The notes: generated from the sequence alone by a model not told the origin. DNA of 64,000 bases from Candidatus Poribacteria bacterium (GCA_965208425.1 OZ242335.1:6151181-6215180), one strand, 5' to 3'; shown: positions 431-16,050, counted from the stretch's first letter. Translations and numbers: made by a program.

Positions 431-431
431 T

Positions 432-1082
432 TCATGACTCCCTCACAACGACTTTTCTGCCAACAACTTCGAGTTTGCCGGCTGCATACCACCGAACGAC
501 CTGTGGATACAGTTTATGCTCTTCAGTATGAATCCGCTTGAACAGGCTTTCTTCGTCATCATCGTCGAATATAGGCACCGAAACCTGTGCGATGATAGGT
601 CCAGCATCAATCCCTTCATCCACAAAAAAAACGCTTATGCCGCTGACCTTAACGCCATACGCTAGCGTATCGGGTACAGGGTGCGCCCCCGGAAACGCAG
701 GCAGTAGAGATGGATGAATATTGACGATACGGTTGCGGTACTTCCGCACAAACGCTGGCTGGAACAATTTCATAAAGCCTGCTAGAACAATTAGCTCCAC
801 TTCACACTTGTCAAGGATTTTTGAAATTTCCGCATCAAACGCATCTCGATTCGGAAAATCCCGGACTCTCACAACATGGGTGGGAATCCCGGCTTCCTTG
901 GCACGGGTGAGCGCGTAGGCTTTCCTTCGATCACTCATCACTACAGCGATTTCAACTCCACTATTTTCGTCATGGTGGAGCTGATCGATTAATGCCTGTA
1001 AATTGGTTCCGCTGCCAGAGGCTAATACTGCAATTTTCATATTCGCTGATTGATTCCTCGCGCAACCTTTGAGTGGGCTCAT
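432..1082 (-). CDS. purN: Phosphoribosylglycinamide formyltransferase (GAR transformylase). The conserved N-terminus MKIAVLASGSGTNLQAL starts at the internal ATG at 1040, so the true start may be 1040.
   Basis: 216-aa ORF with the PurN hallmark motifs (MKIAVLASGSGTNLQALI, NIHPSLLPAFPG, formyl-transferase fold). Confidence 0.85.
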   Translation of the reverse strand: MSPLKGCARNQSANMKIAVLASGSGTNLQALIDQLHHDENSGVEIAVVMSDRRKAYALTRAKEAGIPTHVVRVRDFPNRDAFDAEISKILDKCEVELIVLAGFMKLFQPAFVRKYRNRIVNIHPSLLPAFPGAHPVPDTLAYGVKVSGISVFFVDEGIDAGPIIAQVSVPIFDDDDEESLFKRIHTEEHKLYPQVVRWYAAGKLEVVGRKVVVRES

Positions 1083-1129
1083 AGCCTCTATTATACCCTA
1101 TTTTTTGACCATGTTGTAAGTGCTAACTT

Positions 1130-1235
1130 TGTCTGAATCGCGGATTATCGCGGATTAAGGGATTACACGGATTCAAAAATCCGCGCTATCTATTTCATCT
1201 GTTTAATCTGTGATCCAGACATTTTCCGCCCCCGC
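1130..1235. repeat. C-family hairpin repeat copy ('ttgtctgaatcgcggattatcgcggattaagggattacacggattc' arm). Related copies are at 2338, 8365, 12128, 17281 and 39175.
   Basis: Direct sequence comparison between copies. Confidence 0.6.
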
Positions 1236-1290
1236 CCCAATAGCAATTTCTTCAGGAGTCAAGTTGTATAATGAGTAACTGGTCAATCTC
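1203..1290 (-). pseudogene. Decayed 3'-terminal fragment of a type IIG RM gene. It encodes ...YSLYNLTPEEIAIGAGAENV with the stop lost. It is about 94% identical at the nucleotide level to the true 3' end of the 12170-15802 gene.
   Basis: 1215-1277 aligns to 12171-12233 with 4 mismatches in 67 nt. The peptide matches the C-terminus ...VYSLYNLTPEEIAIVEGAENV* of the 1210-aa protein. Confidence 0.7.
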
Positions 1291-1702
1291 ACTCCTCGGC
1301 TCCGCCTAAAGCGTCCGGGGATGGCGTTCTTGAAACGAATTTTGACCGTAGTGCGAGTTGAGTCGCTAAAAATAAAATGTCGTCCCGTCCATCTGGCCAC
1401 GGTATAATATCAGCATGTAAAGGATGTATAGAAGTTTCGGGTTCAACCTTTTGCTGGAGAGCGTAAACATCTTTTGCCAAAAGGTCAGCTCGACCGTACA
1501 AGGTCTTACCTCTCGGTTCAGCCACAAACTCATTACCAATTGACCAAATCGTGCTTTCGCTCAGTGTTGAGGTACGGTAAACGGACAATCGTTTGTTTTT
1601 TGGTGGAACAAATGCTTTAGCTTTAACAGTCTGATCCGACGGGCGAAACTCATTTCTACTCAGTATGAAACGACTAATTCTTTCATTTGGATCAATTGTC
1701 AT
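1289..1702 (-). CDS. Hypothetical protein of 137 aa, the distal gene of a two-gene overlapping module.
   Basis: ORF with start-stop overlap (1692-1702) with the upstream 205-aa gene. No recognisable motif. Confidence 0.45.
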   Translation of the reverse strand: MTIDPNERISRFILSRNEFRPSDQTVKAKAFVPPKNKRLSVYRTSTLSESTIWSIGNEFVAEPRGKTLYGRADLLAKDVYALQQKVEPETSIHPLHADIIPWPDGRDDILFLATQLALRSKFVSRTPSPDALGGAEE

Positions 1703-2309
1703 AACGGAGGTAAAGACCTGTAATCATGCCAATAACGGCGATAAGGTGAGGCATTGAAAAGGTTAATATCCCACGCGCTTGATTCCCCGCGCCGAAGATT
1801 CCAGCAAAAACGATGTGCCCATCTCCACCAAAACTCAAGGTAAATATCTTTTGTCCTTCTCGCCATTCGAGGCAGATTTCACCGTTGTCTAAGGGCATAA
1901 TATCCGGTAAGGGCACGAATTTGTTAACCGTTTTCAAAAACCTGTCCACATCTTCGTAAGCCGTTTCTGGGATGGCATCTAGCTCTTGATCAAGCCTCCT
2001 TTCTTCTTCCGCTTCTGCTCGTACTTTTTGGAGTATCTTCTCTATATCCTTTGGGGCGGGGTCATCTAAATCTGTGTGAACAGCACTTCCTTCTATCTGA
2101 GGTGCTTTTGCCAGTGCTTTCCATGCTCGATCGTAGTTTCTTAGTATCTCGTCCAAGGCGATTTCTGGATCACTCGCTGATTCAGGCGCGGCTTCGCAGT
2201 CTTCTTGATTCTGAAGATAGATCAGATAGTCAACGACTGCTTTCAGGTTTTCTGTTGAGAGTTGTTTGATTAATTCAACTGCTTGTTGTTGTAGGTCTAC
2301 TTTTCGCAT
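1692..2309 (-). CDS. Hypothetical protein of 205 aa. It carries a 'VVDYLIYLQ' motif shared with the TPR-TRD protein at 4162-6453.
   Basis: ORF. The N-terminal LKAVVDYLIYLQNQ resembles IGKIVDYLIYLQGQ in the 763-aa protein. The acidic middle and the C-terminal domain are unrecognised. Confidence 0.5.
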   Translation of the reverse strand: MRKVDLQQQAVELIKQLSTENLKAVVDYLIYLQNQEDCEAAPESASDPEIALDEILRNYDRAWKALAKAPQIEGSAVHTDLDDPAPKDIEKILQKVRAEAEEERRLDQELDAIPETAYEDVDRFLKTVNKFVPLPDIMPLDNGEICLEWREGQKIFTLSFGGDGHIVFAGIFGAGNQARGILTFSMPHLIAVIGMITGLYLRYDN

Positions 2310-2337
2310 GGTATTCCCTCTTTTGTTCTGTTTGCCT

Positions 2338-2480
2338 TTATTGTCAGAATCGCAGATTATCGCAGATTAAGGGATTACACGAAGACATTCTATAGACATA
2401 GCACTCCGCTGGAGTGCGGGACTTGGACCTACCACCGTTCTATAGACATGCCGCCCCGCTGGGGCGGAATACATACGGTT
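2338..2480. repeat. C-family repeat arm followed by two D-family units ('ttctatagacat..ccgctgg..' hairpins 'gcactccgctggagtgc' and 'gccccgctggggc').
   Basis: Sequence comparison with 17195-17280, 17810-17900 and 52698-52745. Confidence 0.55.
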
Positions 2481-2565
2481 GTCAAGATAGGCATAGGATT
2501 TGTATATCAGTTCAATAATTTCCAAGACTTACGCACTTCAGATTACGTGACTTATAAAAAAAGAT

Positions 2566-2660
2566 GGCTCATATAAAAAGAAAGTGCAAAGCACGAAAAG
2601 AAACCGAGTTTTCAAGAAAAAACTCGGTTTCTTTGCACTAAATCTTAACATGAGCGAAAA
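2566..2660. mobile_element. A-family MITE-like element. It has terminal 'ggctcatataaaaag' and a core perfect inverted repeat GAAACCGAGTTTT-caagaa-AAAACTCGGTTTC (2600-2631) nested in gtgcaaag/ctttgcac. It lies downstream of the 472-aa ATPase gene and is a likely terminator.
   Basis: Nine related copies in the window (15948, 19459, 39320, 40873, 53295, 55918, 60352, 62994). The 53295-53388 copy shows both TIRs (ggctcatg.../...catatgagcc). Confidence 0.7.
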
Positions 2661-2703
2661 AGATATAATGTGTGACGAATTGTGCGTATGTAGGGAACGC
2701 AGA

Positions 2704-2733
2704 TCTGCGTTCCCTACGAATATGTTCAACTGC
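2704..2733. repeat. Perfect 28-bp palindrome gtagggaacgcagatctgcgttccctac. A second copy is at 43071-43098.
   Basis: Exact match of the two copies. The sequence is self-complementary. Confidence 0.7.
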
Positions 2734-2746
2734 GTAAGTTCTACCC

Positions 2747-4165
2747 TTAATTTGCCGCTAATTCAGCTTCAAGTGTTTCCACCACTTTCATTGCCTCAGA
2801 AAGTTCTTTTTTGACCACAGTTACAGTGCGAGCATGGCTGAGTGGGTTCAGGATAATACTTCGATACAGTTCAATCTCGTTAATGAGGCTCTGCCCTAAA
2901 AAGGGTGTGCCATCCCTTAATGTTCCTGTTTTTATTGGACCCCAGAAATCTTTGCTTGTCAGATCTTTCGGATTTTCGCAGTATCTGACTTGAAGATTCT
3001 TCTTATCACAGAATCTCTTGATAGCCGCTTCAAAGGCGGTGCGAAGATAAATGACGCAGGCTTTGTAGTCGTTGGTGGTGAAATATTCCTTCGCCTTTTC
3101 AAGATATGCCTTATTTTTCGCGTAGATTGGGATCTCGTATTCGTCAGTTTGATCGGAATAGAATTCGGCGTATTCCCACTCTGCATCAGATGTTCGTTGT
3201 CTGACAATCTCATACCACGCCTTATCATACGTCATCAAAAAGATTTGGTAGTCTGAGAAATACTCATCTAGGATATCAAGCACCGGCAGGCGGTTTGACA
3301 TATCTAAGCCAATCAACACATCATCTAGGCCGAGAATCTTCAGGCGGCTTTCTGGCTGAATCAGGATTGATGAAAAGTAGATAGCGATAGCAATCGCCGA
3401 TAATCTCGCCTCGTTTAGGAAGAGGTGATGCCTAGGAATATTTCTGTTGAAGAAATCAACCGTTAAGAGAATTTGTTGATTATCAAGCTTCTTTGTCTTG
3501 TTGTTATATTTAACTCTTGGAAAATCGAAGTTGAGTTTAATGTTGTTTTCAAATTTGCCAAGAATTTCAGATGCCCTCGGCTGCAGTTCTGCTAATCTGT
3601 TTGTTAATTCATCGTTGAAATTCGCTATCTGTCTTTCAAGGATTGCAATTTGACCTGCTGCATTTCGGCGTGGATATGGTGGTTGAATGTCAGCCCAATC
3701 ATCCGCAAGGCTCCGACCCCCAATGTTGATGGTATTTGCCAAAAGCGTCTCAACCAGCAAATTGAACACATTCACAGCGTTACTTTCACGATGGATGTAG
3801 TGCGTCTCTAGAAGGGACTTATAGTCGAGAAAACCCTTTGTTTTTGATGCTTCAATAATCAGTTGGTCATCCGTCTCTCTAACGTTTTCCGACCATTCGT
3901 AGATCTCTTTTCTTGACCGTTCATTAGCACGGAGACCTAGTTTGATATAGCCCGCATCTGTGATAAAGATGTTCCGGTCGTTTTCAAATCTATGGGAAGG
4001 ATCTTCGCCGGATTCCAAGAACAGCTTTAACGCAAAATACAGGGACGATTTTCCGCTCCCATTTTCACCGTAAATTAGTAGGTTCTTCCCTGACTTGCGT
4101 AGGTCAATTCGGTAGGTTCCGTAAAAGGCTCTGAAGTTTTTGATTTCAATCTCAGTAATTCTCAC
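2747..4165 (-). CDS. ABC-type (AAA_15/AAA_21-like) ATPase, abortive-infection type. It is translationally coupled (GTG start overlapping the upstream TGA) to the TPR-TRD gene. The C-terminal ~140 aa may be a PrrC/HEPN-like effector (NPLSH motif).
   Basis: N-terminus ITEIEIKNFRAF, Walker A IYGENGSGKSSLYFAL and Walker B/D-loop RLKILGLDDVLIGLD. The tail ...YRSIILNPLSHA is an inference. Confidence 0.75.
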   Translation of the reverse strand: MRITEIEIKNFRAFYGTYRIDLRKSGKNLLIYGENGSGKSSLYFALKLFLESGEDPSHRFENDRNIFITDAGYIKLGLRANERSRKEIYEWSENVRETDDQLIIEASKTKGFLDYKSLLETHYIHRESNAVNVFNLLVETLLANTINIGGRSLADDWADIQPPYPRRNAAGQIAILERQIANFNDELTNRLAELQPRASEILGKFENNIKLNFDFPRVKYNNKTKKLDNQQILLTVDFFNRNIPRHHLFLNEARLSAIAIAIYFSSILIQPESRLKILGLDDVLIGLDMSNRLPVLDILDEYFSDYQIFLMTYDKAWYEIVRQRTSDAEWEYAEFYSDQTDEYEIPIYAKNKAYLEKAKEYFTTNDYKACVIYLRTAFEAAIKRFCDKKNLQVRYCENPKDLTSKDFWGPIKTGTLRDGTPFLGQSLINEIELYRSIILNPLSHARTVTVVKKELSEAMKVVETLEAELAAN

Positions 4166-6453
4166 GCCTTGTCCTCAATGATACGGATCGGTTTAACGCT
4201 ATTGAGAAAGAAAAGGTTCCGCCGGATCGGATGTGTTCTTTCATACAATCGCTCGAAGATCTCCTGTAACGCGGCCATTTTATCTCCCCGAATTTCTTCA
4301 AGCTGCGGCAACCGTTCATCCAACAACGGTTTGAAGAACTGCTTTTTCCCTTGATGCAGTGCTTCAGGTAGATAGGAGTCATAAACCAGTCCGTCAATGA
4401 TCCGCTCAAAGTACCCGAGCATTATGAAGTCGCGGGCGTGTGCCAAATCCACCCCACTCGTCGTCGGTTGTCCCTGAAGGTAGATGAGGTAATCGACAAT
4501 TTTGCCGATCAGGGATTTCTGCGTTGGTGTAAGATCGGGAATAGGGATTTGTTGCATATAGCGGCTGCGCGCCCGTAGATAATCGCCTGACAACTGGTTT
4601 GAAGTCTGCGAATAGAACCACTCCACAACGCGGGAATTGAGGAGACCGCACAACCACGTTTCCTCGGTCGGGATAAGGTAGCATGTATCCCCACAGTAAA
4701 ATCCTTCTGTATCAACGGCAAAGGTTTGATGGTCGTAGTTATTTGGGCAGATCAACTTCGTTTGCGTAAAGAGTTCAGCGTTGCTTCTGGTGGTTGGCAG
4801 TTCGTACCATTTCTGTTTACCCGCCCTTTTGCTCAAGGCGGATTTATATTTTTCCAAATGTTTTCGGATGGCGGGATAACGGTCTATCTCTATGCGACGG
4901 TAGGCAAAAATTAACCATGAGTCCCCGATAGATCGGGATTTATCAACCGGTTTCGCTACCCCCCAGCGTCTGATGTCTCGTCCATGCAAAAACGGTTTCA
5001 AAATATCGGCGGATGCAGGATGATCGGCAATGAGTAGATCTCGCGTCGCACTATCCACGACAAAGGCTCCGCTCCCGCCGGTCCTGATTCCGAAAGTAGG
5101 GCGCGTTTGAACATATTGCGACAGGGGTGGGCCTGCATCACGAAGCTTTGCAAGTAGATTCAATATATCGGGCGATTCAAAGGGTGTACCATCGGGTCTC
5201 AAGAATTTTTCTGTCTTGGGATAACGGCTCCTTCGCCGTTGTGTTAGCATCGCGGCAATGTCTTCGGGCAATTTAATACGATTTGCCCGCTCATACGCCT
5301 CAATGCTTCTGTAGTCATTATGAAATGCAGCGACGATATCCATTCCCAAGTCTTTGGCAGTAGTCAGATCTGATTTGGCTTCTTCCCACTCTCTCAAGTG
5401 CAACCACGCCCGGCCGCGATTGTTATAGGCGTTGACGAAAACGGGATTTAGGGCTATCGCTTTAGTATAGTCTACGATCGCACGGTCATAATCGCCTTTT
5501 TCACTGTAAGCCACTCCACGATTGTTATAGACGTTGGTATCATTGGGATTGAACTTTATTATTTTATTAAAATCTTCAATGGCGCGGTCAAAATCGCCTT
5601 TGTTGAAATAAGCAGCCCCACGATTGTAGTAGGCACCGACAAGGCGTAACTCTAATTGTATTGCAGTGTTATAGTTTTCAATGGCGCGGTCAAAATCGCC
5701 TTTGTTGAAATAAGCAATCCCGCGGTTGTTATAGGCCTCAGCATAATTAGGTTTGCGTTTTATCGCCGTGCTATGGTCTGCGATAGCACGGTCAAAATCG
5801 CCCTTTTTGTCGTAGGCAACCCCACGATTGGTATACGGCTCGGCATAATCAGGGTTAAGTTCTATCGCTTTGTTGTAGTCTTCAATGGCACGGTCAAAAT
5901 CGTGTTTTTTGTCATAAGCAGCACCACGATTGTTATATGGCTCAGCATAATTAGGTTTGCGTTTTATCGCCGTGTTAAAATCTGAGATAGCACGGTCAAA
6001 ATCGCCTTTTTCACGGTAAGCAATTCCACGATTGTTATATGGCTCGGCATAATCGGGTTTGCGTTTTATCGCCGTGTTATAGTCTGCGATGGCACGGTCA
6101 AAATCGCCCTTTAACCCGTAAACAACGCCACGATTGTTATAGGCTTTGGCATAATTGGGATTGAGTCTTATCGCTGTGTTAAAATCTTCAATGGCACGGT
6201 CAACCTCACCTTTTTTGCCGTAAGCAATCCCACGATTGTTATAGGCTTCGACAAAATCAGGTTTGAGTGCTATCGCTTTGCTAAATTCTGCGATTGCTTT
6301 GTCCTGATCCCCGTTTTCGCTATAGGTGATGCCGCGGGTATTATGTGCCTCGGCATCTTCAGATATCAGGGCTATTGCTTTGGTAGTATCCCTGTTAGGT
6401 ACACTTGTATGAGTGTAATCAAAGCTAGCAGTTGCTAAGTTGGGTACTAGCAT
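4162..6453 (-). CDS. Protein of about ten TPR repeats fused to a type-IIG/TaqI-like C-terminal TRD. It has no nuclease or methyltransferase motifs.
   Basis: Repeated AYNNRGxAYxxKGDFDRAIxDYNTAI units. The C-terminal 330 aa align block-by-block with the C-terminal region of the 1210-aa RM enzyme, sharing the CGLLNSR(V/L)xxFY motif. Confidence 0.75.
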   Translation of the reverse strand: MLVPNLATASFDYTHTSVPNRDTTKAIALISEDAEAHNTRGITYSENGDQDKAIAEFSKAIALKPDFVEAYNNRGIAYGKKGEVDRAIEDFNTAIRLNPNYAKAYNNRGVVYGLKGDFDRAIADYNTAIKRKPDYAEPYNNRGIAYREKGDFDRAISDFNTAIKRKPNYAEPYNNRGAAYDKKHDFDRAIEDYNKAIELNPDYAEPYTNRGVAYDKKGDFDRAIADHSTAIKRKPNYAEAYNNRGIAYFNKGDFDRAIENYNTAIQLELRLVGAYYNRGAAYFNKGDFDRAIEDFNKIIKFNPNDTNVYNNRGVAYSEKGDYDRAIVDYTKAIALNPVFVNAYNNRGRAWLHLREWEEAKSDLTTAKDLGMDIVAAFHNDYRSIEAYERANRIKLPEDIAAMLTQRRRSRYPKTEKFLRPDGTPFESPDILNLLAKLRDAGPPLSQYVQTRPTFGIRTGGSGAFVVDSATRDLLIADHPASADILKPFLHGRDIRRWGVAKPVDKSRSIGDSWLIFAYRRIEIDRYPAIRKHLEKYKSALSKRAGKQKWYELPTTRSNAELFTQTKLICPNNYDHQTFAVDTEGFYCGDTCYLIPTEETWLCGLLNSRVVEWFYSQTSNQLSGDYLRARSRYMQQIPIPDLTPTQKSLIGKIVDYLIYLQGQPTTSGVDLAHARDFIMLGYFERIIDGLVYDSYLPEALHQGKKQFFKPLLDERLPQLEEIRGDKMAALQEIFERLYERTHPIRRNLFFLNSVKPIRIIEDKA

Positions 6454-6613
6454 GACCTCTTCTCCTTCGCGATACGGATTTTTTTTGGTGCCATAATAAT
6501 CTGCTGATGGATAGGTGTCACCTAAATTTCACGGAGTAGACTGGCTGCACATTCTGTTTGATGCTTGGAAACGATCCGGAAGTCGTGAACTTGGGTTAAA
6601 ATGAATATCCTAA

Positions 6614-8278
6614 TTATTCGATTGGCGTGTTTTCTATCTGATCTAGCGTTTCAGAAAGTGGCAGAATACGGCTTTTGAGGGCTTGAGCCAACTGATTGTC
6701 TTTCTGAATTAGGGTGAGAACCATGCGCTCATAATCCTTTTGGTTGCGACATCTAAGGGTTGTTGCGATGATTTCAAAAGTTCGACTTTTACGCAGTGAG
6801 TAACGAGCAATAAGCTGATCTAGCTTACCCTCGTCAACGAGCTTATTGAAGCGATGCAGCTCCTCAGAATAGGGGCTTGGATCAATAGATACACAAATTG
6901 GTTGATTTGGGTTATCCATAATTGACTCCTTGGACGGAATTTGCAATAAGACTCTTTCACGTATTTGGCGTTCACATCGTAGTGAGGCCATTCGTTCAGC
7001 CGTTTTCTCCGCTTCCACTTTCAGGGCTTCAATCGCTTTCTGCTTGGCAGATTTGATGAGTTCGTCGGCATCGTAGCCAAGGGAATCCTCTTGTTGGCGA
7101 GCAACAGCGGCAATAGCGTCTGAGCAATAATAGAGAGCTTCAACCGAGTACACATCCAAGGCAAATACACCCTTTTCGGCGAGTTCCTTCACGTCGTCGT
7201 CCGTCCGGTTATCTCGGTCAATGAGGCCAAAGATCTCTACATGTACAGGGTGGATTCCTTGAGATCCACGCCACCCAAGCACCGCTTTTTGGACAGCCTC
7301 ACAACTCTCTTGCGGAACTACAGAAAGCTCGGGAAAGAGAGTAGTGTAAAGGGAAAAATCTGGACCGTCAGGCTTGCCTTCCACGAATAGAATCTTTTTT
7401 CTGGATCCAAGGATTGCAAGTTTAAGTTCTTCCGGGAGTTCAGCGTTCGGCTCCAGGACATAGGCATCCCAAGCTATACATTGATCGCCGCTCCATCGAC
7501 AAGATCTGAGCATGAGAATTTGTGCCTCTGGGTTAACAACTGGAAGTGCTATCTCATGAGTTGCAACAATAAATATGCAGTCCTCCCTTCTTTTGGCGAA
7601 TAATGCCGAGAGAAATGGTTGGATGATAGATCGGTGGAGATGTCTTTCCGGTTCGTCGATTAGAAGCACCTTTCCGGGTTCAGCCGTGATGACATGCGCT
7701 GCGATGATCATTGCGTTCCGTTCACCATCTGACATTTCTGCAACACTGAAGGGATCTCCCTGGGGATGCCTTGCGAGTAGATTCCGGTCATCGGGATTTT
7801 CGACCGTAACTGTCAGCGTACCGAGAGCAAGCAATTCATTTATCTGATCGAACGGAGAAGGCGATTCAGCAGAAATATCTCGTGCTTTCGTGAGATCTTT
7901 ACTATCTACATGACGAGCAATGGCACGGGCACGGGTGTTTTCTTTGGCAACCAAGTCAAATAGGATAGCAGATAAATCCTGCTGTGCCCTGAGATCTTTC
8001 CAGCGAGCCGCATTGGTTATGTGATAGCCTAGTGTTTGATCCTCATGTTGCTGGCGTTGTTCAGATGTAAAATCGCTGCTTCCTGAATTGAACCATGTTT
8101 GTCTGTGTGCAGCTATCCATTTAACCCGGTTATTCCTATTCTCTGAAACAAACCGCTGTATTAACGCCGATTTGCCAGAACCATTAGGTCCTACGATGAA
8201 CAATGGATTACCAATCTTTAGTGTTAGTTGTATTGGATCGCTCGATATTCTCGGAATTTGCCAGTTTATGTCTCCCAT
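6614..8278 (-). CDS. Fused ABC ATPase + DUF4435/TOPRIM nuclease, of the PARIS AriA-AriB fusion type or an OLD-family enzyme.
   Basis: Walker A FIVGPNGSGKSALIQ, signature-like MSDGERNAMI, Walker B KVLLIDEPERHLH. The C-terminal TOPRIM shows KKILFVEGKPDGPDF and GLIDRDNRTDDD. Confidence 0.7.
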   Translation of the reverse strand: MGDINWQIPRISSDPIQLTLKIGNPLFIVGPNGSGKSALIQRFVSENRNNRVKWIAAHRQTWFNSGSSDFTSEQRQQHEDQTLGYHITNAARWKDLRAQQDLSAILFDLVAKENTRARAIARHVDSKDLTKARDISAESPSPFDQINELLALGTLTVTVENPDDRNLLARHPQGDPFSVAEMSDGERNAMIIAAHVITAEPGKVLLIDEPERHLHRSIIQPFLSALFAKRREDCIFIVATHEIALPVVNPEAQILMLRSCRWSGDQCIAWDAYVLEPNAELPEELKLAILGSRKKILFVEGKPDGPDFSLYTTLFPELSVVPQESCEAVQKAVLGWRGSQGIHPVHVEIFGLIDRDNRTDDDVKELAEKGVFALDVYSVEALYYCSDAIAAVARQQEDSLGYDADELIKSAKQKAIEALKVEAEKTAERMASLRCERQIRERVLLQIPSKESIMDNPNQPICVSIDPSPYSEELHRFNKLVDEGKLDQLIARYSLRKSRTFEIIATTLRCRNQKDYERMVLTLIQKDNQLAQALKSRILPLSETLDQIENTPIE

Positions 8279-8364
8279 GAAAAAATTCTTCCTTTCCCTC
8301 CTGTCCTTCAGTACGGTGTATCAGTAACGAATTTTAGGATTCCCAAGATTTTTGGACGCCCTCC

Positions 8365-8480
8365 TACCTATCCTTTAATCCTGAAAATCCTGATTCTGAC
8401 GGTTTTCCTATTGTCAGAATCGCTGATTATCGCAGATTTAAGGATTACACAGATTCAAAAAAACCCGTCATACCATCATA
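8365..8480. repeat. C-family hairpin element with both arms (aatcctgaaaatcctgattctgac ... gtcagaatcgctgattatcgcagatttaaggattacacagattc).
   Basis: Sequence comparison. Confidence 0.6.
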
Positions 8481-9423
8481 TTGAATACTCATCAAACGCA
8501 TCGTCAAATGAAATTTTGCCTTCACACATTTGCTGCCGGACTTCCAATATCTTCCGTGCCGTAGGTAGTCCCTTCACTACAATTTTTGCCTCAATGTGCA
8601 ACCGTTGAAATAATTGATTAAGTTCGTTTACAATATGCTCCCGCATACATGCCTGCGTCCACCTCAATGTTATATTTCTATAATTCCAGTAGAACTCATT
8701 TCGGTATTCTAGGTTGTCATCCCCGTGATTCCAGCCCCACCGCGTCATAATCCTTGCTACGAAAATTTCTATCTCCCTGACGTAAAGTTGGAAGTTGAAA
8801 TATACAGGCCACTCTTGCATGCTCACTTCCTCCATTAAAAAAGGTGGGGTGGGATCCGGACAACGAGCTAGCTTCCTCAGCATTGCACGGTAACCTTGGT
8901 AACCACCCAACCTCTTCGGTATTGCGATATCCCAGATATCCTCCTCCGGTATCATAATGCAGCACCTTTCCCATACGCTACGGTCAGCCTTGGGAATTAC
9001 CTGGATGTACCTCCCAAAGACATGAAACAACCGCAGGGACGTGAAATTATACAATCGGCGTGCTTCGCCAGTTTCCACATCTCGGATAATCTCATGTACG
9101 ACACGACCATGCGATATAAGATAACGAGCAAGCTGCTCTACTGAATCACTCAACAACTCCTCCAATCTACGCCAGTCATGCCAATCCGTACTAGTGAGTG
9201 ATTCCAGAATTGCAACCGCGTGGGATTTATGTTCCGAATCGCCTTGTATGTCCACAGAGAAATTTGGGGACTGAAGCGATTCACCGCCAATTGGCATTAC
9301 CGCTAGGGAAGCATGTCGTTTGAACACATGTGTATTTGTATTGAAATCAATTTCTTCTCGTAAACTTGGAAAGTACTTGGCAGCGCGTGGTGCTTTCAAT
9401 TGTTCACAGGATTCAGATCTCAT
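8476..9423 (-). CDS. Hypothetical protein of 315 aa, distal gene of a three-gene operon (ATGA overlap with the upstream gene).
   Basis: ORF with operon context. No motif recognised. Confidence 0.5.
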   Translation of the reverse strand: MRSESCEQLKAPRAAKYFPSLREEIDFNTNTHVFKRHASLAVMPIGGESLQSPNFSVDIQGDSEHKSHAVAILESLTSTDWHDWRRLEELLSDSVEQLARYLISHGRVVHEIIRDVETGEARRLYNFTSLRLFHVFGRYIQVIPKADRSVWERCCIMIPEEDIWDIAIPKRLGGYQGYRAMLRKLARCPDPTPPFLMEEVSMQEWPVYFNFQLYVREIEIFVARIMTRWGWNHGDDNLEYRNEFYWNYRNITLRWTQACMREHIVNELNQLFQRLHIEAKIVVKGLPTARKILEVRQQMCEGKISFDDAFDEYSI

Positions 9424-11090
9424 GATGATTCGTCCATCGTATCGCGACTTTCCTCCCTTCTAATTGCTTCTTCGATATCCCCATGCCGCAGCAGCCTACC
9501 GAAATCCAAGTTTTTCCCATCTTCTCGCTGGCAAACATATTTCGCGATAAAAATGTCAATCCCATCGTAAAATAAAAAGTCGTCGTTTCTTGCGAATACT
9601 CTCACCAACGGACTTTTGTGTATCACAACAGTCTCGGTACCACCAAGGATGCCACCATAATCGAGGGCAATCTCTTTACGTTCCACATCCCCCAGTCGTC
9701 GTTGTATCATCTGCATCCATCTGGTTCTATTTGTGCTTCGGTGTGCTATCTCGAACGCTGATTCGGTGAGCGAGACAGCTTCAGCGAGAAACTTAAGCAG
9801 CGGAAGCTGCGACTGAGCTGAATCCTGGTCGAGATAATTGTCCCACTCCTTCACTATCGGTTCCTTCAGGCATACTGTATCGTGATAGTCAGAAAGTAGG
9901 TATGCGTAACCGCTAACTTCCATTAGGTCCAAAAGAGGCGCAACAGCGATTTTTAGATCTCTTTCAATTTGCCATACCGACATGTTTTCTTTAGGTTTCA
10001 GTTTTTCAAACTGTAGTGAGCTGCCATAAAAGTAACTTTTGAAAAGTGCGTCAACCATATCGCAATCATTTTCACACATAGCAGTAAGTAACGCTTCTCC
10101 AACGTTGTGCAGAAATTGTCCCGCAAAGTCTGGATACGATTCTGGTTTTGAGATCAAAGATAGTAGGATATTCTCAGTGGACATGAGCTTTAGAAGTTTT
10201 TTTTCTCGCTGCTTCCCTTTTTCTATTAACTTATCAATGTCCAAGCTTGGCCAGAGAAGATTTTCTATTCTTCGATCAGAATTGAGATCGCTCCAAAGAT
10301 GGTCCAGAGTATTTGTGTGATGATCCAGTTTGTTCCAATACTCTAACTCTGTTGATATCATTACCGCTGCCAACCATGGATGCTTTGAAGATGTTGCGAT
10401 CTCTATCCAATGCTTATAGAGATCGCCTGCTTTTTCATAAAAAAAACTCATTGCAGTCAGAAGGTTCTTTGCCTCCTGTTGTGCTATCAGCTCTTGAATA
10501 TACCAAGAAGGACTGATGACGCACCCTTCAACTCTTTCCTCGAATTCAAGCCTTGAGCGCAGCCATTCAAGTTGTGTCAGAATATGTACAGCAAATCCGG
10601 CTTTGTAGATTGATTGCTCTGACTTCCATGTAATACGATGGATACGCTGAAGTATCTCAGCCCGTCCATAAGATTCAATAGCACTAATATAGGCCAGAAG
10701 AACATTAATCGGCATCATTGCCAACTGTTCACAAATTTGCATGTGTTCCAGGGGTTCTTCTGCAACAACCTTATCCTTCTTGACAAAAATAAGAGCTTCA
10801 CAATGGGAAAAAATATCGCGTATCAGGTCGAATGCAAATTCCACCTGCTGCTCTTTTACAAGTTGTTGGATATAAGCGTCAAGATCGCCGAGGAGTTTGT
10901 CAGCTAAAGCATAACGTTTGTTTCTTATGTTGATTTCCAGACAACCTTTCACGATTGGTAATATTGCAGCTTCAATCCATCTTGGGTCGCTTACGAGTTT
11001 TGGCCGCAGTCCGGTAGCAGTCTCGTGTGCCAGAGATGTTTCTGTATCACCTGATACCAATCTGGATGCATGACTCGCTTCTCGTACCAT
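9420..11090 (-). CDS. Hypothetical protein of 556 aa, predicted all-alpha, middle gene of the three-gene operon. Its annotated start overlaps the upstream gene by about 100 bp, so the true start may be internal (for example the GTG for ...IVKGCLEIN).
   Basis: ORF. No motif recognised. Confidence 0.5.
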   Translation of the reverse strand: MVREASHASRLVSGDTETSLAHETATGLRPKLVSDPRWIEAAILPIVKGCLEINIRNKRYALADKLLGDLDAYIQQLVKEQQVEFAFDLIRDIFSHCEALIFVKKDKVVAEEPLEHMQICEQLAMMPINVLLAYISAIESYGRAEILQRIHRITWKSEQSIYKAGFAVHILTQLEWLRSRLEFEERVEGCVISPSWYIQELIAQQEAKNLLTAMSFFYEKAGDLYKHWIEIATSSKHPWLAAVMISTELEYWNKLDHHTNTLDHLWSDLNSDRRIENLLWPSLDIDKLIEKGKQREKKLLKLMSTENILLSLISKPESYPDFAGQFLHNVGEALLTAMCENDCDMVDALFKSYFYGSSLQFEKLKPKENMSVWQIERDLKIAVAPLLDLMEVSGYAYLLSDYHDTVCLKEPIVKEWDNYLDQDSAQSQLPLLKFLAEAVSLTESAFEIAHRSTNRTRWMQMIQRRLGDVERKEIALDYGGILGGTETVVIHKSPLVRVFARNDDFLFYDGIDIFIAKYVCQREDGKNLDFGRLLRHGDIEEAIRREESRDTMDESS

Positions 11091-11959
11091 AGGCTATCGG
11101 TCGGAATCAATTTTTTTCCTGTTTCATAGTACATGAGAAATAAGAGGAGACGTTTGCACAGATTGGCAAATGGCTGGCCATTCAGATGCAGTTCTTTTTC
11201 CGCTATTTCAGACACAGCAGTAAGCGTTTCTATGGCCCTTTGAGCAACTCTATAAGCATGATTTTGGAATGATTGATCAGACCAGCGATAACCACCAGCT
11301 TGCATTTGTAGATAATACCGTCGTAACTGTTTGAACAAGCGATCAGAGAGGGTCGTGGGATCAGACAGATAAAACGCGCGTGCTCCCAATCGAACGAATC
11401 CAATAATTGTCAATCCTGCCCCTAGTAGAAGTAGTGGTATTGCCAGTATGATTGGTTCGCGACCTAGGGCGTGGAAAATGAGTAAGCATACACCGAAATA
11501 GGTAAATACAGCGATGCAGCCCATGTAAGCGTTACCGACTTGTTCTTTAGCTAGTAAGCTTCGGATGTTATTGGGGACCTTCGCATAGATAGCACCACCT
11601 AGAACGCTAATGGCAGCATAATAAAGACCGATGAATAAACCTCCGGCACCTACGACGGTAGCGAGCAGAGTTCCGTAGTGGTTCTCTTTGGGGATGGTAA
11701 AGCCTATTTCTGTGAACAAGGAAACGAAATATGAGTTAGTAATTTGGAGACCGAAGACTGTGAGGGGCACCAAGACCAGTTCGACTAGCGTGGACTTCAG
11801 TAGAGACAATAGAAATTTTGTTGTTGTACTCTCCTCCCGCATCCAGTGTTTCATTCCGAACAGCATTCGATAACTGACGAATACGAGATGTGAAAGAGCT
11901 CTTTTGGTCCTCCAGAAGAGCCGGGTTTGGGCGAAAAAAAGAAACAAGGAATTAAGCAT
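10991..11959 (-). CDS. Integral membrane protein (about 4 TM helices) with a ~130-aa cytoplasmic C-terminal domain. First gene of the three-gene operon.
   Basis: Hydrophobic segments LLATVVGAGGLFIGLYYAAISVLGGAIY, YMGCIAVFTYFGVCLLIFHAL and IILAIPLLLLGAGLTIIGFVRL. Confidence 0.5.
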   Translation of the reverse strand: MLNSLFLFFAQTRLFWRTKRALSHLVFVSYRMLFGMKHWMREESTTTKFLLSLLKSTLVELVLVPLTVFGLQITNSYFVSLFTEIGFTIPKENHYGTLLATVVGAGGLFIGLYYAAISVLGGAIYAKVPNNIRSLLAKEQVGNAYMGCIAVFTYFGVCLLIFHALGREPIILAIPLLLLGAGLTIIGFVRLGARAFYLSDPTTLSDRLFKQLRRYYLQMQAGGYRWSDQSFQNHAYRVAQRAIETLTAVSEIAEKELHLNGQPFANLCKRLLLFLMYYETGKKLIPTDSLWYEKRVMHPDWYQVIQKHLWHTRLLPDCGQNS

Positions 11960-12127
11960 TGTTGGTCACTATAGGAGTTAGATTCTGTTGACATTTGGGG
12001 ACAAAACAGATGGTAAAAAACAGGCAATAAGTATACCCCACAAATGTTAAGAATTCCACATAAATATTAAGTATTGCAAATGGCACGAACAAGTGGATAT
12101 GGGGATCCCCTTTACAAAATCGTTCCA

Positions 12128-12185
12128 AAGGACTTATCCTGTTAATCCTTCAATCCTGAAAATCCTGATTCAGACATTTTCCGCC
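12128..12185. repeat. C-family repeat arm (aatcctgaaaatcctgattcagac) abutting the stop of the RM gene.
   Basis: Sequence comparison. Confidence 0.55.
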
Positions 12186-15100
12186 CCCTCCACAATAGCG
12201 ATTTCTTCAGGAGTCAAGTTGTATAATGAGTATACTTGTTGGTTGATTTTCTCTTCAAGAGCATCTGTGTCTCCATCATAGTTTAATTTTTTAATACATA
12301 GAATTTGCTCTACTAGGGTTACGATTCGATCGTGCTTTACTTTTCCACCTGAACTAGCGAAGTCTAGAGAAGGAAGTGGCAATTGTTCAATGTACTGTTT
12401 ACTCGCAGCAAAATAGCCACTCCTGAAATTCGTTGAAACTTGCTTTAGATAAAAATCAAGCAAACGGGAATTTAATAAGCCGCATAAAAAAGCCAAACTT
12501 CCAAACGAGCGACGGATTGTGATTCCATAGCCACCTGTAGTTACATTGATAAAATAATAGTTATCATCATAGTCTAAATACGCCGATAATTCTGTAATCA
12601 TATAAGGTATCATTAATTTTGGCTGCTCCCAAAGCCCAAGATTTTGAGTCCGACCAAAACGATACCATTGTTCATCTGTAAATTTACCCTTTTCGCGTGC
12701 TTCCAGAACTTTTCTGTTACGATTTAGATATGCCCAAGCTAATGGATAATTCTGTTGCATTTCATTTTCAGAGAACAGTCTTGCAGAGTGATTTTTAATT
12801 TCATAGGGAAAAAGGACAAAAGCTGACGGTCTCGCTCTATATCGATGAACGTGACCACTACGAATAACAGGTTTTAGCACTTCTAACTCAACCGGAACCC
12901 ACTCCATGAGAGATTCAGAATATATATCAATTATGTCCTCTTCTTGATTAATCTCATATTTTTTGAAGAGAAGAACCTTGTCTGTACTTGTAATTAATCC
13001 CTGATAAATCCTATTTGACACATCCGCTAATTTTAAGGGCATTTTACGTAATTTATCAAAAACCCTTCCCTCTTTTCCCACCACAAAATTCCACGCTGCA
13101 CTCGTGACCTCTGTAGCCGAAACCATTCCTTCAACAGTCTCCCCTCTGTTACGCCACGCGAGTATATCGTTCACTTTGATGAAGCGAAAATCATTACTAC
13201 CACCTTTATTCAAAAAGAGCAAACAAGTATAGTTAGTTGCCCCCTCGAAAATCTGCTCATCTCCAAAGTGAACGATACTTTTCAGATATTTCCCTCTTGC
13301 GATCAACCTTCGCAAACCTTCGCCATATTTTGCATTGAAAAACTTATGTGGCAAAATATACGCTAATTGTCCATGACCATTTAGTAAAGCCAACCCTTTT
13401 TCCGCGAAGATCACATAAACATCATAGCTGCTAACTGCCGATTTATAATATTCATTATACAATATTTTCAGTCCCGGGTCCAAACTTTGCACTCGAATAT
13501 ACGGCGGGTTCCCAATTACTACATCAAACCCCTCCGCCACACCAAACATCCACTCCGGATCAAACCACTCCGCGCTTGAGTTCTGGTCGTAGGGGTCCCA
13601 AGCGGCGACTTTATTCGCATCATCGGCGGGCATACCGATATGCTTTAATTCCGTTGCTAACGCTTGACGCAATTTCTTGTCTTCTCGTTTACACGCCAGT
13701 TTCTGTGGGCGGGTTGTGGCATGGAAATGCCGCTCACGATTTTCGCCCAATTCTACCTCCAGAGCTTTCGCTTGGGGACTGGTCAGAGTTCGCTCTCCCT
13801 CAAGGCCGATGAGTGTGTTCGCTGCGATAAACCGCGTCTCCAGATTCGGCAGCGGCTTAATCCCAAAGTTATCGGCATTGTTATCCGGCTCCTGCTCAAT
13901 GGCGAGGGAGATGAAGAAGCGGAGTTTAGCGATTTGGCAGGCGATGGATTGAATGTCCAAGCCGAAGATGCTATTTTGGATGAGGTATAACTTCCGTCCG
14001 AAATCCCCCGAATAGTTTTCAAAGATTCTGCTAATTTCCTTGAGCTCTTCGTCGCGGGTCTGTCTATCCTTTGTATCAAACGCAGCCGCCGCCCGCTGGA
14101 TGGCACGTTCTTTCTGTAGCTGCTCCCACCGGGCGTTATCGGGGTCAAGCCGCCGCAGTGCGAGGGTCAATTTGTGCAGCACCCCCATCGGAAACGCACC
14201 CGACCCCACCGCCGGATCTAGTATTTTGAGTTCTGAAATTGCCCGCACCACCGCGTCGGCTTCGCGGCTGTCGAAAAATTCGCTCGCATCGTCAAACGCC
14301 TTTGCGTAGTCGAACAGATAGCGCAGCCGCTCGTCCGTTGACGACACCTGCGCTGCGAGTGCTGCCACCAGTGCCTCCTCCACCATATAGTCCACGATGG
14401 GGCGCGGGGTGTAGTAGGAGCCGGTCTGTTTCCGTGCTGTTGCGCCGGTTTCGGGGTTATAGGCGGCGAGTAGGTTTTCAAACACCTTGCCGAGTAGTTC
14501 CGGATCTAACGCGACCTCTTGCTCTATCGGTGTGTTCTCCTCAACGGTGAACTTGTAGCCTTTCAACAGAGGAATCAGACCGCGATCGACATCAAAGAAT
14601 AGATGGTTGGGAAGGCTTAACTTTTTGTAGTGTTCATCGGAAAAGCAGTCAATCCGATAGCCGCCGTCGCGTGTCGCTTCCTCGCTATCAAGGCAGTCAA
14701 ACAAGCCGCCGTTGATAAATGGTGTTTTTTCAAATAGCGTCAACAGTTTATCGGGGTCGGTTACCTGATCTTTGTAGCGATACAGTGAGAAATTGCGATG
14801 CCCTGTGTTTCCGCCTTTGGTGAACCGACGCTTCTCTATCTCGGTGTTCAGTGTCGCAAAAAACAGGTTCTGTAGCACGGCGCGATAGTAGGAATCGCCG
14901 GTGTCCTGATCGTAATCCTTCAGCAATGGGGCGATTTGTGTCTCACTGAACAGTGCATCGGCGATCAGTCCCTTCTCCTTGATGAACCAGACGAACAGCA
15001 GGCGCGTGATTAGGCGAATGACGTGCTCCTCCGGCTTCAAAGCGCGCTTTTCATTTGTTGGAAACTTCCCCTCAGCAACCGCCCATTCAAACCAGGTGAA

Positions 15101-15950: not shown

Positions 15951-16050
15951 AATCGTGCAACAGAAACCAAGTTTTCAAGTCCCGATTCTCGGGATGATCG
16001 ACTAGTCGGCAAAAAACTCGGTTTCTATAACTGTTTCATGATTGCACGAT
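15948..16050. mobile_element. A-family MITE copy with an inserted cccgattctcggg sub-hairpin. It overlaps the last ~8 codons and the stop of the 16025-17170 gene.
   Basis: Core gaaaccaagtttt...aaaactcggtttc flanked by cgtgcaa/ttgcacg. Confidence 0.65.

Follow-up and report, generated by a model that had tools for sequence, protein, structure and literature searches.

Insertion with long target duplication was reportedly described for RM gene complexes by Nobusato et al. in 2000. In the RM gene complexes treated by Furuta et al. (2010; PMC2853133), the repeats that result from this kind of insertion are well above 30 bp, the insert is shorter than 20 kb and free of mobility genes, and a resident gene that is overlapped by one repeat at its 3' end remains intact; the same paper describes amplification via repeats of this kind and, for type IIG genes, allelic diversity of the TRD. 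Defence hotspots flanked by core genes, such as cDHS1/2 of Pseudomonas aeruginosa (PMC10250203), and HGT hotspots (PMC5635113) are also known.

We found a duplicated 3' end of a putative type IIG RM gene beside purN in a 64-kb stretch of Candidatus Poribacteria DNA, which we call the window. The features under discussion are, with coordinates and strand:

432..1082 (-), purN (phosphoribosylglycinamide formyltransferase), conserved distal flank; Pfam Formyl_trans_N, E 3.7e-59
1131..1220 (-), H1, complete hairpin repeat of 90 nt; terminal inverted arms GTCTGGATC...GATTCAGAC
1211..1277 (-), left repeat copy, the orphan RM tail; 63/67 to 12166-12232, exact core of 31 nt
1215..1291 (-), full RM-derived orphan fragment: ~23 codons, (N)EIDQ..YSLYNLTPEEIAIGAGAENV, and the former stop; 5-nt deletion
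1289..1702 (-), 137-aa gene, its stop codon within the first RM-derived bases
1692..2309 (-), 205-aa gene overlapping the 137-aa gene (tblastn, ORF families)
2341..2391 (-), H1-type 3' half, upstream of the 205-aa gene (repeat family D3; pattern search)
2747..4165 (-), SMC/RecF-like ATPase of 472 aa that pairs with the TPR-TRD gene; Pfam SMC_N, AAA_15, AAA_23
4162..6453 (-), TPR-repeat protein, 763 aa, with a C-terminal TaqI_C-like TRD; Pfam TPR families, TaqI_C E 3.3e-14
6614..8278 (-), candidate PARIS-like fused AriA-AriB (ABC ATPase and DUF4435); PADLOC AriAB E 6.4e-57
8330..8461 (-), punctuation separating AriAB from the three-gene operon: H1 3' half (8411-8461), then H2-type from 8400 (repeat families D3 and D5, pattern search, sequence)
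8476..11959 (-), three co-oriented genes, 322/556/315 aa, adjoining the RM stop; window-specific
12101..12175 (-), H2-type hairpin repeat after the native RM stop, which it supplies (GTCTGAATCAGGATTTTCAGG...); lower boundary approximate
12166..12232 (-), right repeat copy: the last 20 RM codons (12173-12232), the stop (12170-12172) and 4 nt of flank
12237..13495 (-), swapped RM C-terminal module: methylase motif IV region and TRD; low GC, no close relative
13496..15802 (-), conserved RM head, ~aa 1-769, proximal homology anchor; Pfam Eco57I, N6_Mtase
16025..17170 (-), beta-lactamase-fold serine hydrolase, conserved proximal flank; Pfam Beta-lactamase E 3.2e-48

As in the cases of Furuta et al. 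(2010), co-oriented repeats of more than 30 bp (here 67 nt) surround an insert of less than 20 kb, in nine ORFs of which no mobility genes were found, and by this analogy the type IIG tail duplication would have a precedent among RM genes (PMC2853133). Unlike those cases, the insert carries no R and M genes but other (candidate) defence genes and small hairpin repeats, and RM is not inserted but serves as the target. Its tail, which is that of a multi-copy family, is targeted repeatedly, giving cassette-like strings and arrays. With the defence hotspots and the 'minimal mobile elements' of Neisseria, the locus shares conserved flanks, cargo that is in part of defence type and differs between relatives, and recombination in the conserved flanks as the presumed route of exchange. 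It differs from those hotspots in that dispersed hairpins and parts of a defence gene, the RM head and tail, are among its anchors, and in that orphan tails punctuate the interval; the organisms of the window group are uncultivated sponge symbionts.

The RM gene itself resembles the products of TRD or domain swapping in type IIG and type I RM systems, with a conserved head, a divergent C-terminal specificity module, a conserved extreme C-terminus and sharp homology breakpoints, except that its C-terminal anchor is duplicated downstream, where it delimits non-RM cargo. Co-oriented cassettes parted by imperfect hairpin repeats recall integron cassette arrays as well as REP/BIME and MITE arrays, as do tandem hairpin units at gene 3' ends. 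Unlike an integron, however, the locus has no IntI-type integrase, and its hairpin arms are GTCTGAATC/GATTCAGAC and not the attC core RYYYAAC/GTTRRRY; unlike in all these arrays, part of a coding sequence is contained in the punctuation. In the loci around RM genes, neither a RAYT nor a transposase of the kind that would be expected of REP/MITE arrays was identified.

The original prediction proposed a co-oriented direct duplication of the type IIG 3' end, which is real and above the family background, although its boundaries are 1211-1277 and 12166-12232 and not 1215-1277 and 12171-12233. The two copies are 67 nt long, agree at 63 of 67 positions, contain a 31-nt exact core (1247-1277/12202-12232) and start 10,955 bp apart; the 64-kb window holds no further copy, and the chance expectation is 0. 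Native tails of 74 RM genes, compared in 663 pairs, have a mean identity of 75% and a 99th percentile of 93%, which places the two window copies, at 94%, in the top 1%. The best match of the window orphan among these 74 native tails is the window's own, and the sequences closest to the window's native tail are in turn the orphans of L002 (42/44), the window (60/64) and L001 (43/47).

The left copy has lost its stop, as predicted: TGG at 1215-1217 replaces the RM stop TGA (12170-12172), and the translation ends ...SYSLYNLTPEEIAIGAGAENVWITD*. Both copies also enter a hairpin-repeat arm, GTCTG(A/G)ATC, again in line with the prediction. The right copy had been read as the last 7 codons and about 45 bp of downstream flank; because the RM ORF (1210 aa) spans 12170-15802 (-), it is the coding tail and not 3' flank. 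At the left copy, similarity was thought to end at 1281, 8 bp from the stop of the 137-aa gene, but RM-derived sequence extends to 1291, and the copy therefore overlaps that stop codon (1289-1291). A profile search (nhmmer, 31 RM 3' ends) aligned the orphan to profile positions 181-265 (E 2.7e-19), and window positions 1291-1130 align over 155-168 nt with native RM 3' ends and H1 in five loci (L009, L002, L023, L014, L005). The fragment may reach up to ~1327, where the in-frame RTPSPDALGGAEE resembles RM HTDPDADVSDLE.

H1 is joined directly to the orphan tail, its 5' arm covering the last codon and the former stop, and it follows the native RM stop in eight other loci (L001, L002, L005, L009, L014, L023, L057, L098). 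It folds into a single long hairpin (-32.7 kcal/mol, z -5.35) and is MITE/REP-like in being short, multi-copy, bounded by inverted terminal arms and hairpin-forming. The H2 element after the window's native stop has the same start in L010 and in the arrays of OZ244042.1. The 9-mer hairpin arms occur nine times in the window against two expected, and many times in related loci. Hairpin elements at 17305-17328 and 39186-39209 of the window stand without a tail, and a composite unit of hairpin, mini-tail and hairpin recurs between cassettes.

The cargo was predicted to be defence genes, which holds for part of it, namely the PARIS-like AriAB and, at sister loci, TIR, PIN and other genes; most of the cargo is unannotated. 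AriAB is the sole confident known defence gene in the window cargo: the PADLOC fusion model is matched over positions 43-567 of 570, Pfam matches are AAA_21, ABC_tran and DUF4435, and the combination of an ABC-type ATPase with a DUF4435/TOPRIM nuclease marks it as a candidate PARIS gene. No AriAB homologue is present in the 80 related loci, which had been gathered by RM homology. The three-gene operon had no match in Pfam, NCBIfam or PADLOC and no homologues in the 80 loci or a metagenome scan. PADLOC type IIG models match the TPR-TRD protein in its C-terminal part only, and the TPR-TRD/ATPase pair also lies downstream of RM paralogues in L009, L035, L073, L021, L066, L032 and L047. No integrase or transposase was found among the nine cargo ORFs of 130 aa or more compared with Pfam, NCBIfam and PADLOC.

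The 137-aa and 205-aa genes are the oldest resident cargo. The former, without a match in Pfam, NCBIfam or PADLOC, belongs to a family of 38 proteins in which conservation stops near aa 124, and only a subset carries the 13-aa extension beyond that point. In A3, the extension is borne by the 137-138-aa proteins P0002, P0004, P0005 and P0008 and, in more diverged form, by P0012 and P0014; P0002 and P0004 are the homologues at the orphan-bearing loci L098 and L001. The C-terminal domain of the 205-aa protein is fused to TPR or TIR-TPR proteins in L001, L002, L098 and L099.

The order hydrolase–RM–[variable]–purN is kept in 11 related Poribacteria loci. Their conserved surroundings comprise AP endonuclease and EPSP synthase in addition to purN downstream, and the hydrolase and RM head upstream (in up to 11 loci, some contigs being cut on one side); the hydrolase is 77-94% and purN 84-90% identical. 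The purN ORFs of these loci are 202-203 aa, and the true start in the window is probably near 1040. From the RM stop to purN, the ten loci with both ends measure 3.7-11.1 kb, and gene sets differ throughout, with sister-locus cargo including TIR, PIN and cNMP-TIR genes. Different cargo at the same site had been proposed as a check on the idea of a recombination hotspot, and the content of the RM–purN interval does differ in each of the 11 loci, which supports such a hotspot. The converse check gave a negative result: none of the 11 syntenic loci has an empty site (RM-tail-hairpin-purN), where RM would be followed directly by the downstream flank, and a contrast of filled and empty states is therefore not demonstrable at the window locus.

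The cargo is not the single ~11-kb block that had been proposed. L002, L001, L098 and L099 share a collinear junction of 137-aa gene, orphan, H1 and purN promoter at 90-94% identity, and degenerate remnants occur in L023 and L009. Orthologues of the orphan, joined to the 137-aa gene, exist in at least five genomes, so that it predates most of the 11-kb cargo, of which the TPR-TRD/ATPase pair is common to only some loci and the three-gene operon and AriAB are confined to the window.

The RM gene is a mosaic with defined breakpoints. Its product, with Pfam matches to Eco57I (4.2e-36), N6_Mtase and TaqI_C and a PADLOC match to REase_MTase_IIG (1.4e-90), appears to combine a methylase core and a TaqI_C-type TRD in one chain, as a type IIG enzyme would. 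The head is 94.3% identical in nucleotide sequence to L009 and 86-90% to L001, L005, L098 and L099, whereas nucleotide homology to the syntenic alleles is absent between 13496/13499 and 12236, where it resumes 4 nt off the edge of the repeat. The C-terminal module has 36-41% GC, against 52-57% in the head, and its protein identity to any of the 80 loci does not exceed 31.7%.

Orphan tails are not peculiar to the window: about 15 other, paralogous RM loci carry them too. We counted 17 co-oriented orphans at 15 loci, all of 180 nt or less and without intermediate-sized RM fragments, frequencies that are conditional on sampling because the loci were gathered by RM homology. In the RM sense, a 21-nt tail motif occurs 125 times, against a single antisense occurrence. 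The repeats are between 22 and ~180 nt long; their left edges lie -39 to -133 nt from the stop and may in part mark where family-wide conservation starts rather than true junctions. At the paralogous locus L037, a 130-nt repeat adjoins a 1-kb insert, and L031, which is upstream-syntenic with it, has a single tail and H1; the two resemble the filled and empty states of a site, the duplicated target measuring 130 nt. In L064, a 90-nt repeat of 94% identity lies around 5 kb. OZ244042.1 carries cargo-free arrays at four RM loci, with up to ~17 units of ~154 bp, each a tail of 57-70 nt and a hairpin, and close tail doublets spaced 265-410 nt occur in L043, L047, L048, L062 and L057. Every tail in doublets and arrays is preceded by a hairpin arm, in contrast to the window group and L037, where the 5' edge of the orphan touches the cargo directly. 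Full-length co-oriented RM genes stand in tandem, 2-6 kb apart, at 4 of 80 loci (L008, L024, L030, L061).

We favour, with moderate confidence, an insertion at the RM 3' end with long target duplication, after which tail and hairpins served as recombination anchors. The original prediction had the cargo inserted into, or replacing most of, a second RM gene copy, an assumption that is not needed given that all 17 orphans are so short. A related possibility, that an ancestor had two co-oriented type IIG genes separated by cargo and a deletion spared only the last ~80-120 nt of the distal one, which thereby became fused to the 137-aa gene's end, draws on the four loci with tandem genes, on orphan positions 1278-1291, and on the 137-aa ORF entering RM-derived sequence, as in a deletion fusion. 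These 14 nt upstream of the repeat fit the family consensus and not the window's present RM allele, so that the insertion reading needs the extra assumption of a later swap of the RM module. Random deletions in a 3.6-kb gene should, however, also leave larger fragments, tail-and-hairpin units multiply without an RM body nearby (arrays, doublets), and the comparison of L037 with L031 agrees with insertion and duplication; we consider such a relic improbable, and less likely than insertion with long target duplication. It is similarly doubtful that the tail was first copied passively with hairpin repeats, through MITE-like insertion or unequal crossing-over, and that cargo arrived later and was bracketed incidentally. 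The cargo-free arrays, the close doublets and the recurring composite unit speak for this order, against which stand the orphans that adjoin cargo with no hairpin arm (window group, L037) and the two window hairpins that lack a tail. If the hairpin element is counted as the insert, this order of events and insertion with long target duplication overlap.

Cargo that behaves as an integrative element with its attachment site in the RM tail, comparable to islands at tRNA 3' ends, would explain the direct repeats around the insert, the reconstituted target gene and the conservation of the tail block CTTGAAAATGAGATTGAT even at synonymous positions. We nevertheless judge it very unlikely: neither the cargo nor the surroundings of the arrays yielded an integrase or recombinase, and no tyrosine recombinase was found in the window region or the loci examined, the only mobility genes seen in the loci being an IS1595 transposase (L022) and an IS605 OrfB (L099); unlike in site-specific integrative elements, repeat lengths and boundaries vary across insertions (about -39 to -133 nt); and the cargo is heterogeneous and of differing ages. 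That the copies have no direct relationship, being alike through a conserved C-terminal peptide or through misassembly, is hardly credible either. The peptide ..VYxLYxLTxEEIAIVE.. is indeed conserved in 74 genes at the first two positions of its codons, but third positions vary in the family and the window copies still reach the top 1% of tail pairs. An assembly artefact appears unlikely because the same orphan with the same junction recurs in the independent long assemblies of L001, L002, L098 and L099.

Under insertion with long target duplication, the left copy would be an orphaned duplicate of the RM 3' tail (its last ~23, perhaps ~40, codons and stop), still attached to the hairpin repeat that normally succeeds the RM stop. 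We infer that, in a common ancestor of several Poribacteria, DNA ending in the 205/137-aa pair entered the RM 3' end and duplicated its target; homologous Campbell-type integration of DNA already bearing a tail copy would be an equivalent route. Either way, the RM gene would remain intact and the old RM end would be stranded beside purN. Similar events may have recurred in the lineage, with gene cargo (L037, L064 and others) or with hairpin elements alone, which could have produced the doublets and arrays. RM head, tail, dispersed hairpins and the purN promoter region could then have anchored gain, loss and exchange of cassettes; the window lineage would have gained the PARIS-like gene and the three-gene operon beside the RM stop, and the C-terminal methylase/TRD module of RM would have been replaced, with the right crossover within the tail. 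The orphan tail may thus represent an old marker of a site with repeated insertion and exchange of defence genes.

Both ends of the variable interval next to the type IIG RM gene carry the 3′ end of that gene as a direct repeat, in the same orientation, with 63 of 67 nucleotides identical and an exact core of 31 nt, which confirms the duplication described in the original prediction. The 64-kb window holds no third copy of the 67-nt repeat, and none is expected by chance.

Features of the repeat and of the interval between its copies (window positions)
1131-1220: H1, a complete 90-nt hairpin directly 3′ of the orphan tail (-32.7 kcal/mol, z -5.35)
1211-1277, minus strand: left copy of the direct repeat
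1291-1212, minus strand: orphan tail, the match of a profile built from 31 RM 3′ ends (E 2.7e-19)
1289-1291, minus strand: stop codon of the 137-aa gene
1692-2309, minus strand: 205-aa gene
2747-6453, minus strand: TPR-TRD/ATPase gene pair
12166-12232, minus strand: right copy of the direct repeat (native tail)
12170-12172, minus strand: TGA stop of the RM gene
12170-15802, minus strand: RM gene, 1210 aa (Pfam Eco57I, N6_Mtase, TaqI_C)

The right copy comprises the final 20 RM codons, the TGA stop and just 4 nt of flank, and not the seven codons and about 45 bp of flank first proposed. In the left copy, hereafter the orphan tail, the stop has been lost as predicted: TGG replaces the TGA of the RM gene, and the translation ends ...SYSLYNLTPEEIAIGAGAENVWITD*. 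Both copies also enter a hairpin-repeat arm, GTCTG(A/G)ATC, as had been noticed, and the last RM codon and stop sit within this arm. Because the profile matches nothing farther upstream, the RM-derived orphan amounts to about 23 codons and the former stop, although the left edges of orphans may partly reflect the point where family-wide conservation starts. The similarity, earlier thought to end 8 bp from the stop of the first cargo gene, reaches 1291 and overlaps this stop, which lies within the first RM-derived bases; the orphan carries a 5-nt deletion. With the native RM 3′ end and H1 of the related RM loci L009, L002, L023, L014 and L005, window 1291-1130 shares an alignment of 155-168 nt and 77-87% identity. 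Behind its own RM stop the window has H2, a hairpin unlike H1; the orphan thus keeps the combination of RM end and H1 found natively in sister genomes. The orphan start near profile position 170-181 was rejected as a cleavage site: it is inseparable from the onset of family-wide conservation, and the orphans of L037, L019, L053, L048 and L064 begin earlier.

Family conservation could in principle mimic a duplication. The RM tail peptide is conserved at codon positions 1 and 2 and variable at position 3 in 74 native tails, whose pairwise identity over 67 nt has a mean of 75%, a 95th percentile of 90% and a 99th of 93%. The identity of the window pair is within the top 1% of these values. Among the 74 tails, the best match of the window orphan is the window's native tail, whose own nearest relatives are three orthologous orphans (L002, 42/44; window, 60/64; L001, 43/47). 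Judged by these identities, the two window copies are true duplication partners.

Nearly all of the closest kin of the RM protein come from Candidatus Poribacteria MAGs, with several paralogues per genome. The gene order amidase, oxidoreductase, beta-lactamase-fold hydrolase, RM, variable interval, purN is shared by L001, L002, L005, L009, L010, L014, L023, L057, L098 and L099, with flank proteins about 77-95% identical. Every syntenic locus has its own gene set between RM and purN, and the distance from RM stop to purN is 11.1 kb in the window versus 3.7-6.5 kb elsewhere. This comparison, which the original prediction had proposed, revealed the same site with different cargo and supports its reading of the interval as a recombination hot-spot. 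The orphan is present as well in L001, L002, L098 and L099, where the C-terminal part of the 205-aa gene, the 137-aa gene, orphan, H1 and purN-side promoter region are collinear at 90-94% identity; L023 and L009 hold degenerate tail remnants at the matching position. The duplication is therefore older than the split of at least five genomes, and its junction, being common to them, is unlikely to be the assembly artefact that had been considered. Similarity of the copies by chance or artefact is highly improbable. No empty site was found among the syntenic loci compared. A metagenome scan with purN gave just distant relatives (at most 75% identity), with no RM gene or tail upstream and so no empty site, and an exact-sequence look-up of purN and the RM protein gave no match on record.

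In four sister genomes (L002 16360-17259, L005, L014 and L023), a gene of 200-242 aa separates purN from the shared promoter-like region. The window (1040-1130) lacks this gene; its promoter region adjoins purN, and the purN ORF gains an N-terminal extension of about 14 aa. L099 (1043-2266) has an IS605-family OrfB/TnpB gene directly upstream of the syntenic RM gene on the opposite strand; hairpins serve as the ends of IS605-family elements, so that a connection with the hairpin repeats is conceivable.

The window cargo consists of a three-gene operon, a PARIS-like AriAB fusion gene (PADLOC E 6.4e-57), a TPR-TaqI_C gene with an SMC-like ATPase gene, and the 205/137-aa pair, all in the orientation of the RM gene.

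Genes between the tails at syntenic loci with the orphan
L002: fusion of TPR and the 205-aa C-terminal domain
L001: two TPR genes
L098: a small gene and a PIN gene, and a fusion of TIR-TPR and the 205-aa C-terminal domain
L099: TIR-TPR and two other genes

The operon and AriAB have no homologues in any of the 80 RM loci and so appear to be later arrivals specific to the window. With cargo differing among genomes, the 11 kb is therefore not one single cargo, as had been assumed; the orphan and the 137-aa junction are old. AriAB is the sole gene of this cargo confidently predicted to act in defence. The 137-, 205-, 315-, 556- and 322-aa proteins have no match in Pfam, NCBIfam or PADLOC, a metagenome scan with the 556-aa protein gave no relative, and modelling of the 137-aa protein with AlphaFold2 on 25 homologues gave no usable structure (mean pLDDT 36). 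A tRNA-targeted island or known RNA element was rejected, since the window has no tRNA genes and positions 1-17000 no Rfam family. A consensus promoter/terminator scan of 1000-12400 found sites no more numerous than in shuffled sequence.

Several cargo components recur in other contexts. At eight loci (the window, L009, L035, L073, L021, L066, L032 and L047), a type IIG RM paralogue is directly followed by the gene pair for a TPR protein with TaqI_C-like DNA-recognition domain and an SMC/RecF-like ATPase; the pair is covered by no PADLOC system model and may represent an uncharacterised RM-associated system. Its TPR-TRD gene contains 8-9 near-perfect tandem units of 102 nt (5350-6363; 34-aa TPR repeats), whose number varies among orthologues (763 aa in the window vs 651 aa in L009), and its C-terminal region shares the motif VDYLIYLQ with the 205-aa protein. 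The latter is modular (window 1692-2309 and 4162-4500 compared with L001, L002, L098, L099, L005, L014 and L023): its N-terminal 50-68 aa or so are also found as small ORFs of their own, each next to another small gene in a pair that resembles a toxin-antitoxin module, and in other genomes TPR or TIR-TPR proteins carry its C-terminal domain as a fusion, with the 137-aa gene always following. The intergenic stretch upstream of the 205-aa gene contains two 25-nt direct repeats 50 nt apart (2388-2412 and 2438-2462; TTCTATAGACAT.GC.C.CCGCTGG), each belonging to a small palindrome. A 67-nt palindromic, terminator-like element 3′ of the ATPase gene (2592-2658) belongs to another dispersed repeat family, with 97% identity to L009 6882-6948, a different locus, 84% to L009 23848-23944, and a weaker relative at window 15959-15979.

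The RM gene itself is a mosaic. Over residues 1-750 it shares 95.6% identity with L009 and 83-89% with the others; over residues 751-1200 the identity drops to at most 32% with any of the 80 loci, and in the last 10 residues it recovers to 70-100%. In all comparisons, nucleotide homology is lost at 13496/13499 and regained at 12236, and GC within 12237-13495 (residues ~770-1189) is 36-41%, against 52-57% in the RM head. This pattern points to a recent replacement of the C-terminal methylase/TRD half from an unsampled source. The right breakpoint, 12236, lies 4 nt from the repeat edge at 12232, and the tail would thus anchor, by its homology, the 3′ side of a swappable methylase/TRD module. In the bases directly upstream of the repeat, the orphan resembles the family consensus and differs from the present RM allele, which a swap of the module would explain. 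Within the tail, the block CTTGAAAATGAGATTGAT (12229-12258, minus strand; profile positions 173-204) has a synonymous-site conservation of 0.76-1.0 versus 0.42-0.69 in the rest of the tail, is the starting point of many orphan tails and, together with GTATACT, forms a sigma-70-like TTGAAA-18-TATACT directed towards the downstream cargo; it could be a putative promoter or recombination site.

Orphan tails are not confined to the window. With the same RM 3′-end profile, and in loci sampled by RM homology, we found 17 further co-oriented orphans of at most 180 nt, spread over 15 loci and each lying 3′ of an RM paralogue. Of the copies of a 21-nt tail motif in 81 sequences, 125 have the RM sense and one the antisense orientation, and 20 loci hold more than one copy. 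At L037, a 130-nt repeat (-119 to +11 from the stop, 90% identical) directly adjoins a 1-kb insert with one 223-aa ORF; L031, which has its upstream flank in common with L037, has one tail and H1. At L064, a 90-nt repeat of 94% identity surrounds 5 kb of cargo. Cassettes elsewhere encode ThsB-like TIR, cNMP-binding CAP12/Pycsar-type TIR, TIR_2, FRG-TPR and DUF2806 proteins, and each of three cassettes in L098 is followed by a composite hairpin/mini-tail/hairpin unit. OZ244042.1 has cargo-free arrays at four RM loci, with up to about 17 units of ~154 bp made of a 57-70 nt tail and a hairpin; the units differ by point mutations and so are not assembly stutter.

Arrays and composite repeats at related RM loci
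L022: array, 13450-15170
L008: arrays, 6250-7410 and 13510-14870
L007: array, 13490-14870
L006: array, 13350-14170
L057: composite repeat, 13790-13990 and 17265-17345
L023: composite repeat, 5100-5200
L009: composite repeat, 17505-17590
L098: composite repeat, 8130-8210 and 12380-12480

The arrays at L022, L008, L007 and L006, all loci of OZ244042.1, each adjoin a different RM paralogue on its downstream side, in L008 also upstream, with 13-22 RM tail codons per unit. No recombinase is consistently near them; housekeeping genes and one IS1595 transposase were seen. The composite repeat between cassettes is built from the 3′ arm of a hairpin, a mini-tail of 27 nt (GCAGAAATCGCCCTTGTGGAGAAACCG) and a third hairpin element (CCGCCCCAAAATCCTGAAAATCC...CCAGATTCAGAC); it also makes up the 3′ part of the L001, L002, L098 and L099 orphans. 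Hairpin elements thus seem to have hit the RM tail at no fewer than three positions.

The simplest joint account of the window, L037, L064 and the arrays would be an insertion, bringing in either genes or a hairpin element, at the 3′ end of RM or at the hairpin arm, with duplication of the tail. RM gene complexes are known to undergo insertion with long target duplication, among them cases whose repeats overlap a resident gene's 3′ end, and to be amplified via such repeats (PMC2853133); in contrast to those complexes, the RM gene is here the target and not the passenger. After the initial event, the interval would act as a defence hotspot flanked by core genes, similar in behaviour to those known (PMC10250203, PMC5635113) and differing from them in its extra internal anchors. 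Homologous, Campbell-type entry of DNA already bearing a tail could yield the same product. An exact core of 31 nt is within the length range usually deemed enough for RecA-dependent exchange.

The original prediction saw in the left repeat the remnant of a second RM gene into which the cargo had inserted, or most of which it had replaced. Tandem full-length RM genes do exist at 4 of the 80 loci, but a relic leaves the uniformly short orphans, the arrays and the L037/L031 pair unexplained, and we consider this origin unlikely. That the duplication preceded the cargo overlaps with the insertion model, and as a separate history it seems improbable to us. Site-specific integration is very improbable; the window cargo contains no integrase or transposase (Pfam, NCBIfam, PADLOC). 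Membership of an integron-like system was rejected, as neither IntI nor an attC core was found. A more far-reaching reading, which we regard as doubtful, is that the tail of the multi-copy type IIG RM family and its hairpin form a dedicated capture and exchange site: cargo and one tail would be excised as circles by tail-by-tail recombination and re-enter any paralogous RM tail of the genome or of a recipient cell, an integron-like platform without the integron integrase. Such a site would leave the RM gene always intact and produce, downstream of it, strings of co-oriented defence cassettes punctuated by tails and possibly transcribed from the promoter-like sequence in the tail; the search for new defence genes in uncultivated bacteria could then use orphan tails as a practical marker.

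Recognisable mobility genes are often missing from defence islands, whose route of assembly is still unclear; here, the boundaries are directly readable. Our case combines known kinds of event, namely long target duplication, defence hotspot and type IIG module swapping, and for the recurrent tail-and-hairpin punctuation we found no description in the literature searched. If the tail is not a recombination handle, the locus is still a well-documented ordinary hotspot flanked by core genes. If it is one, looking at what an RM stop and an orphan tail 3′ of it enclose becomes a search rule for candidate defence genes, which in the window nominates the unannotated three-gene operon, the TPR-TRD/ATPase pair and the 205/137-aa pair, and insertion with long target duplication would be widened from RM passengers to RM landing pads. 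Tail and small hairpins recur as punctuation among co-oriented cassettes beside a mosaic RM gene at many loci of this uncultivated sponge-symbiont phylum, and a tail acting as handle would account for the joint shuffling of RM specificity modules and neighbouring defence genes.
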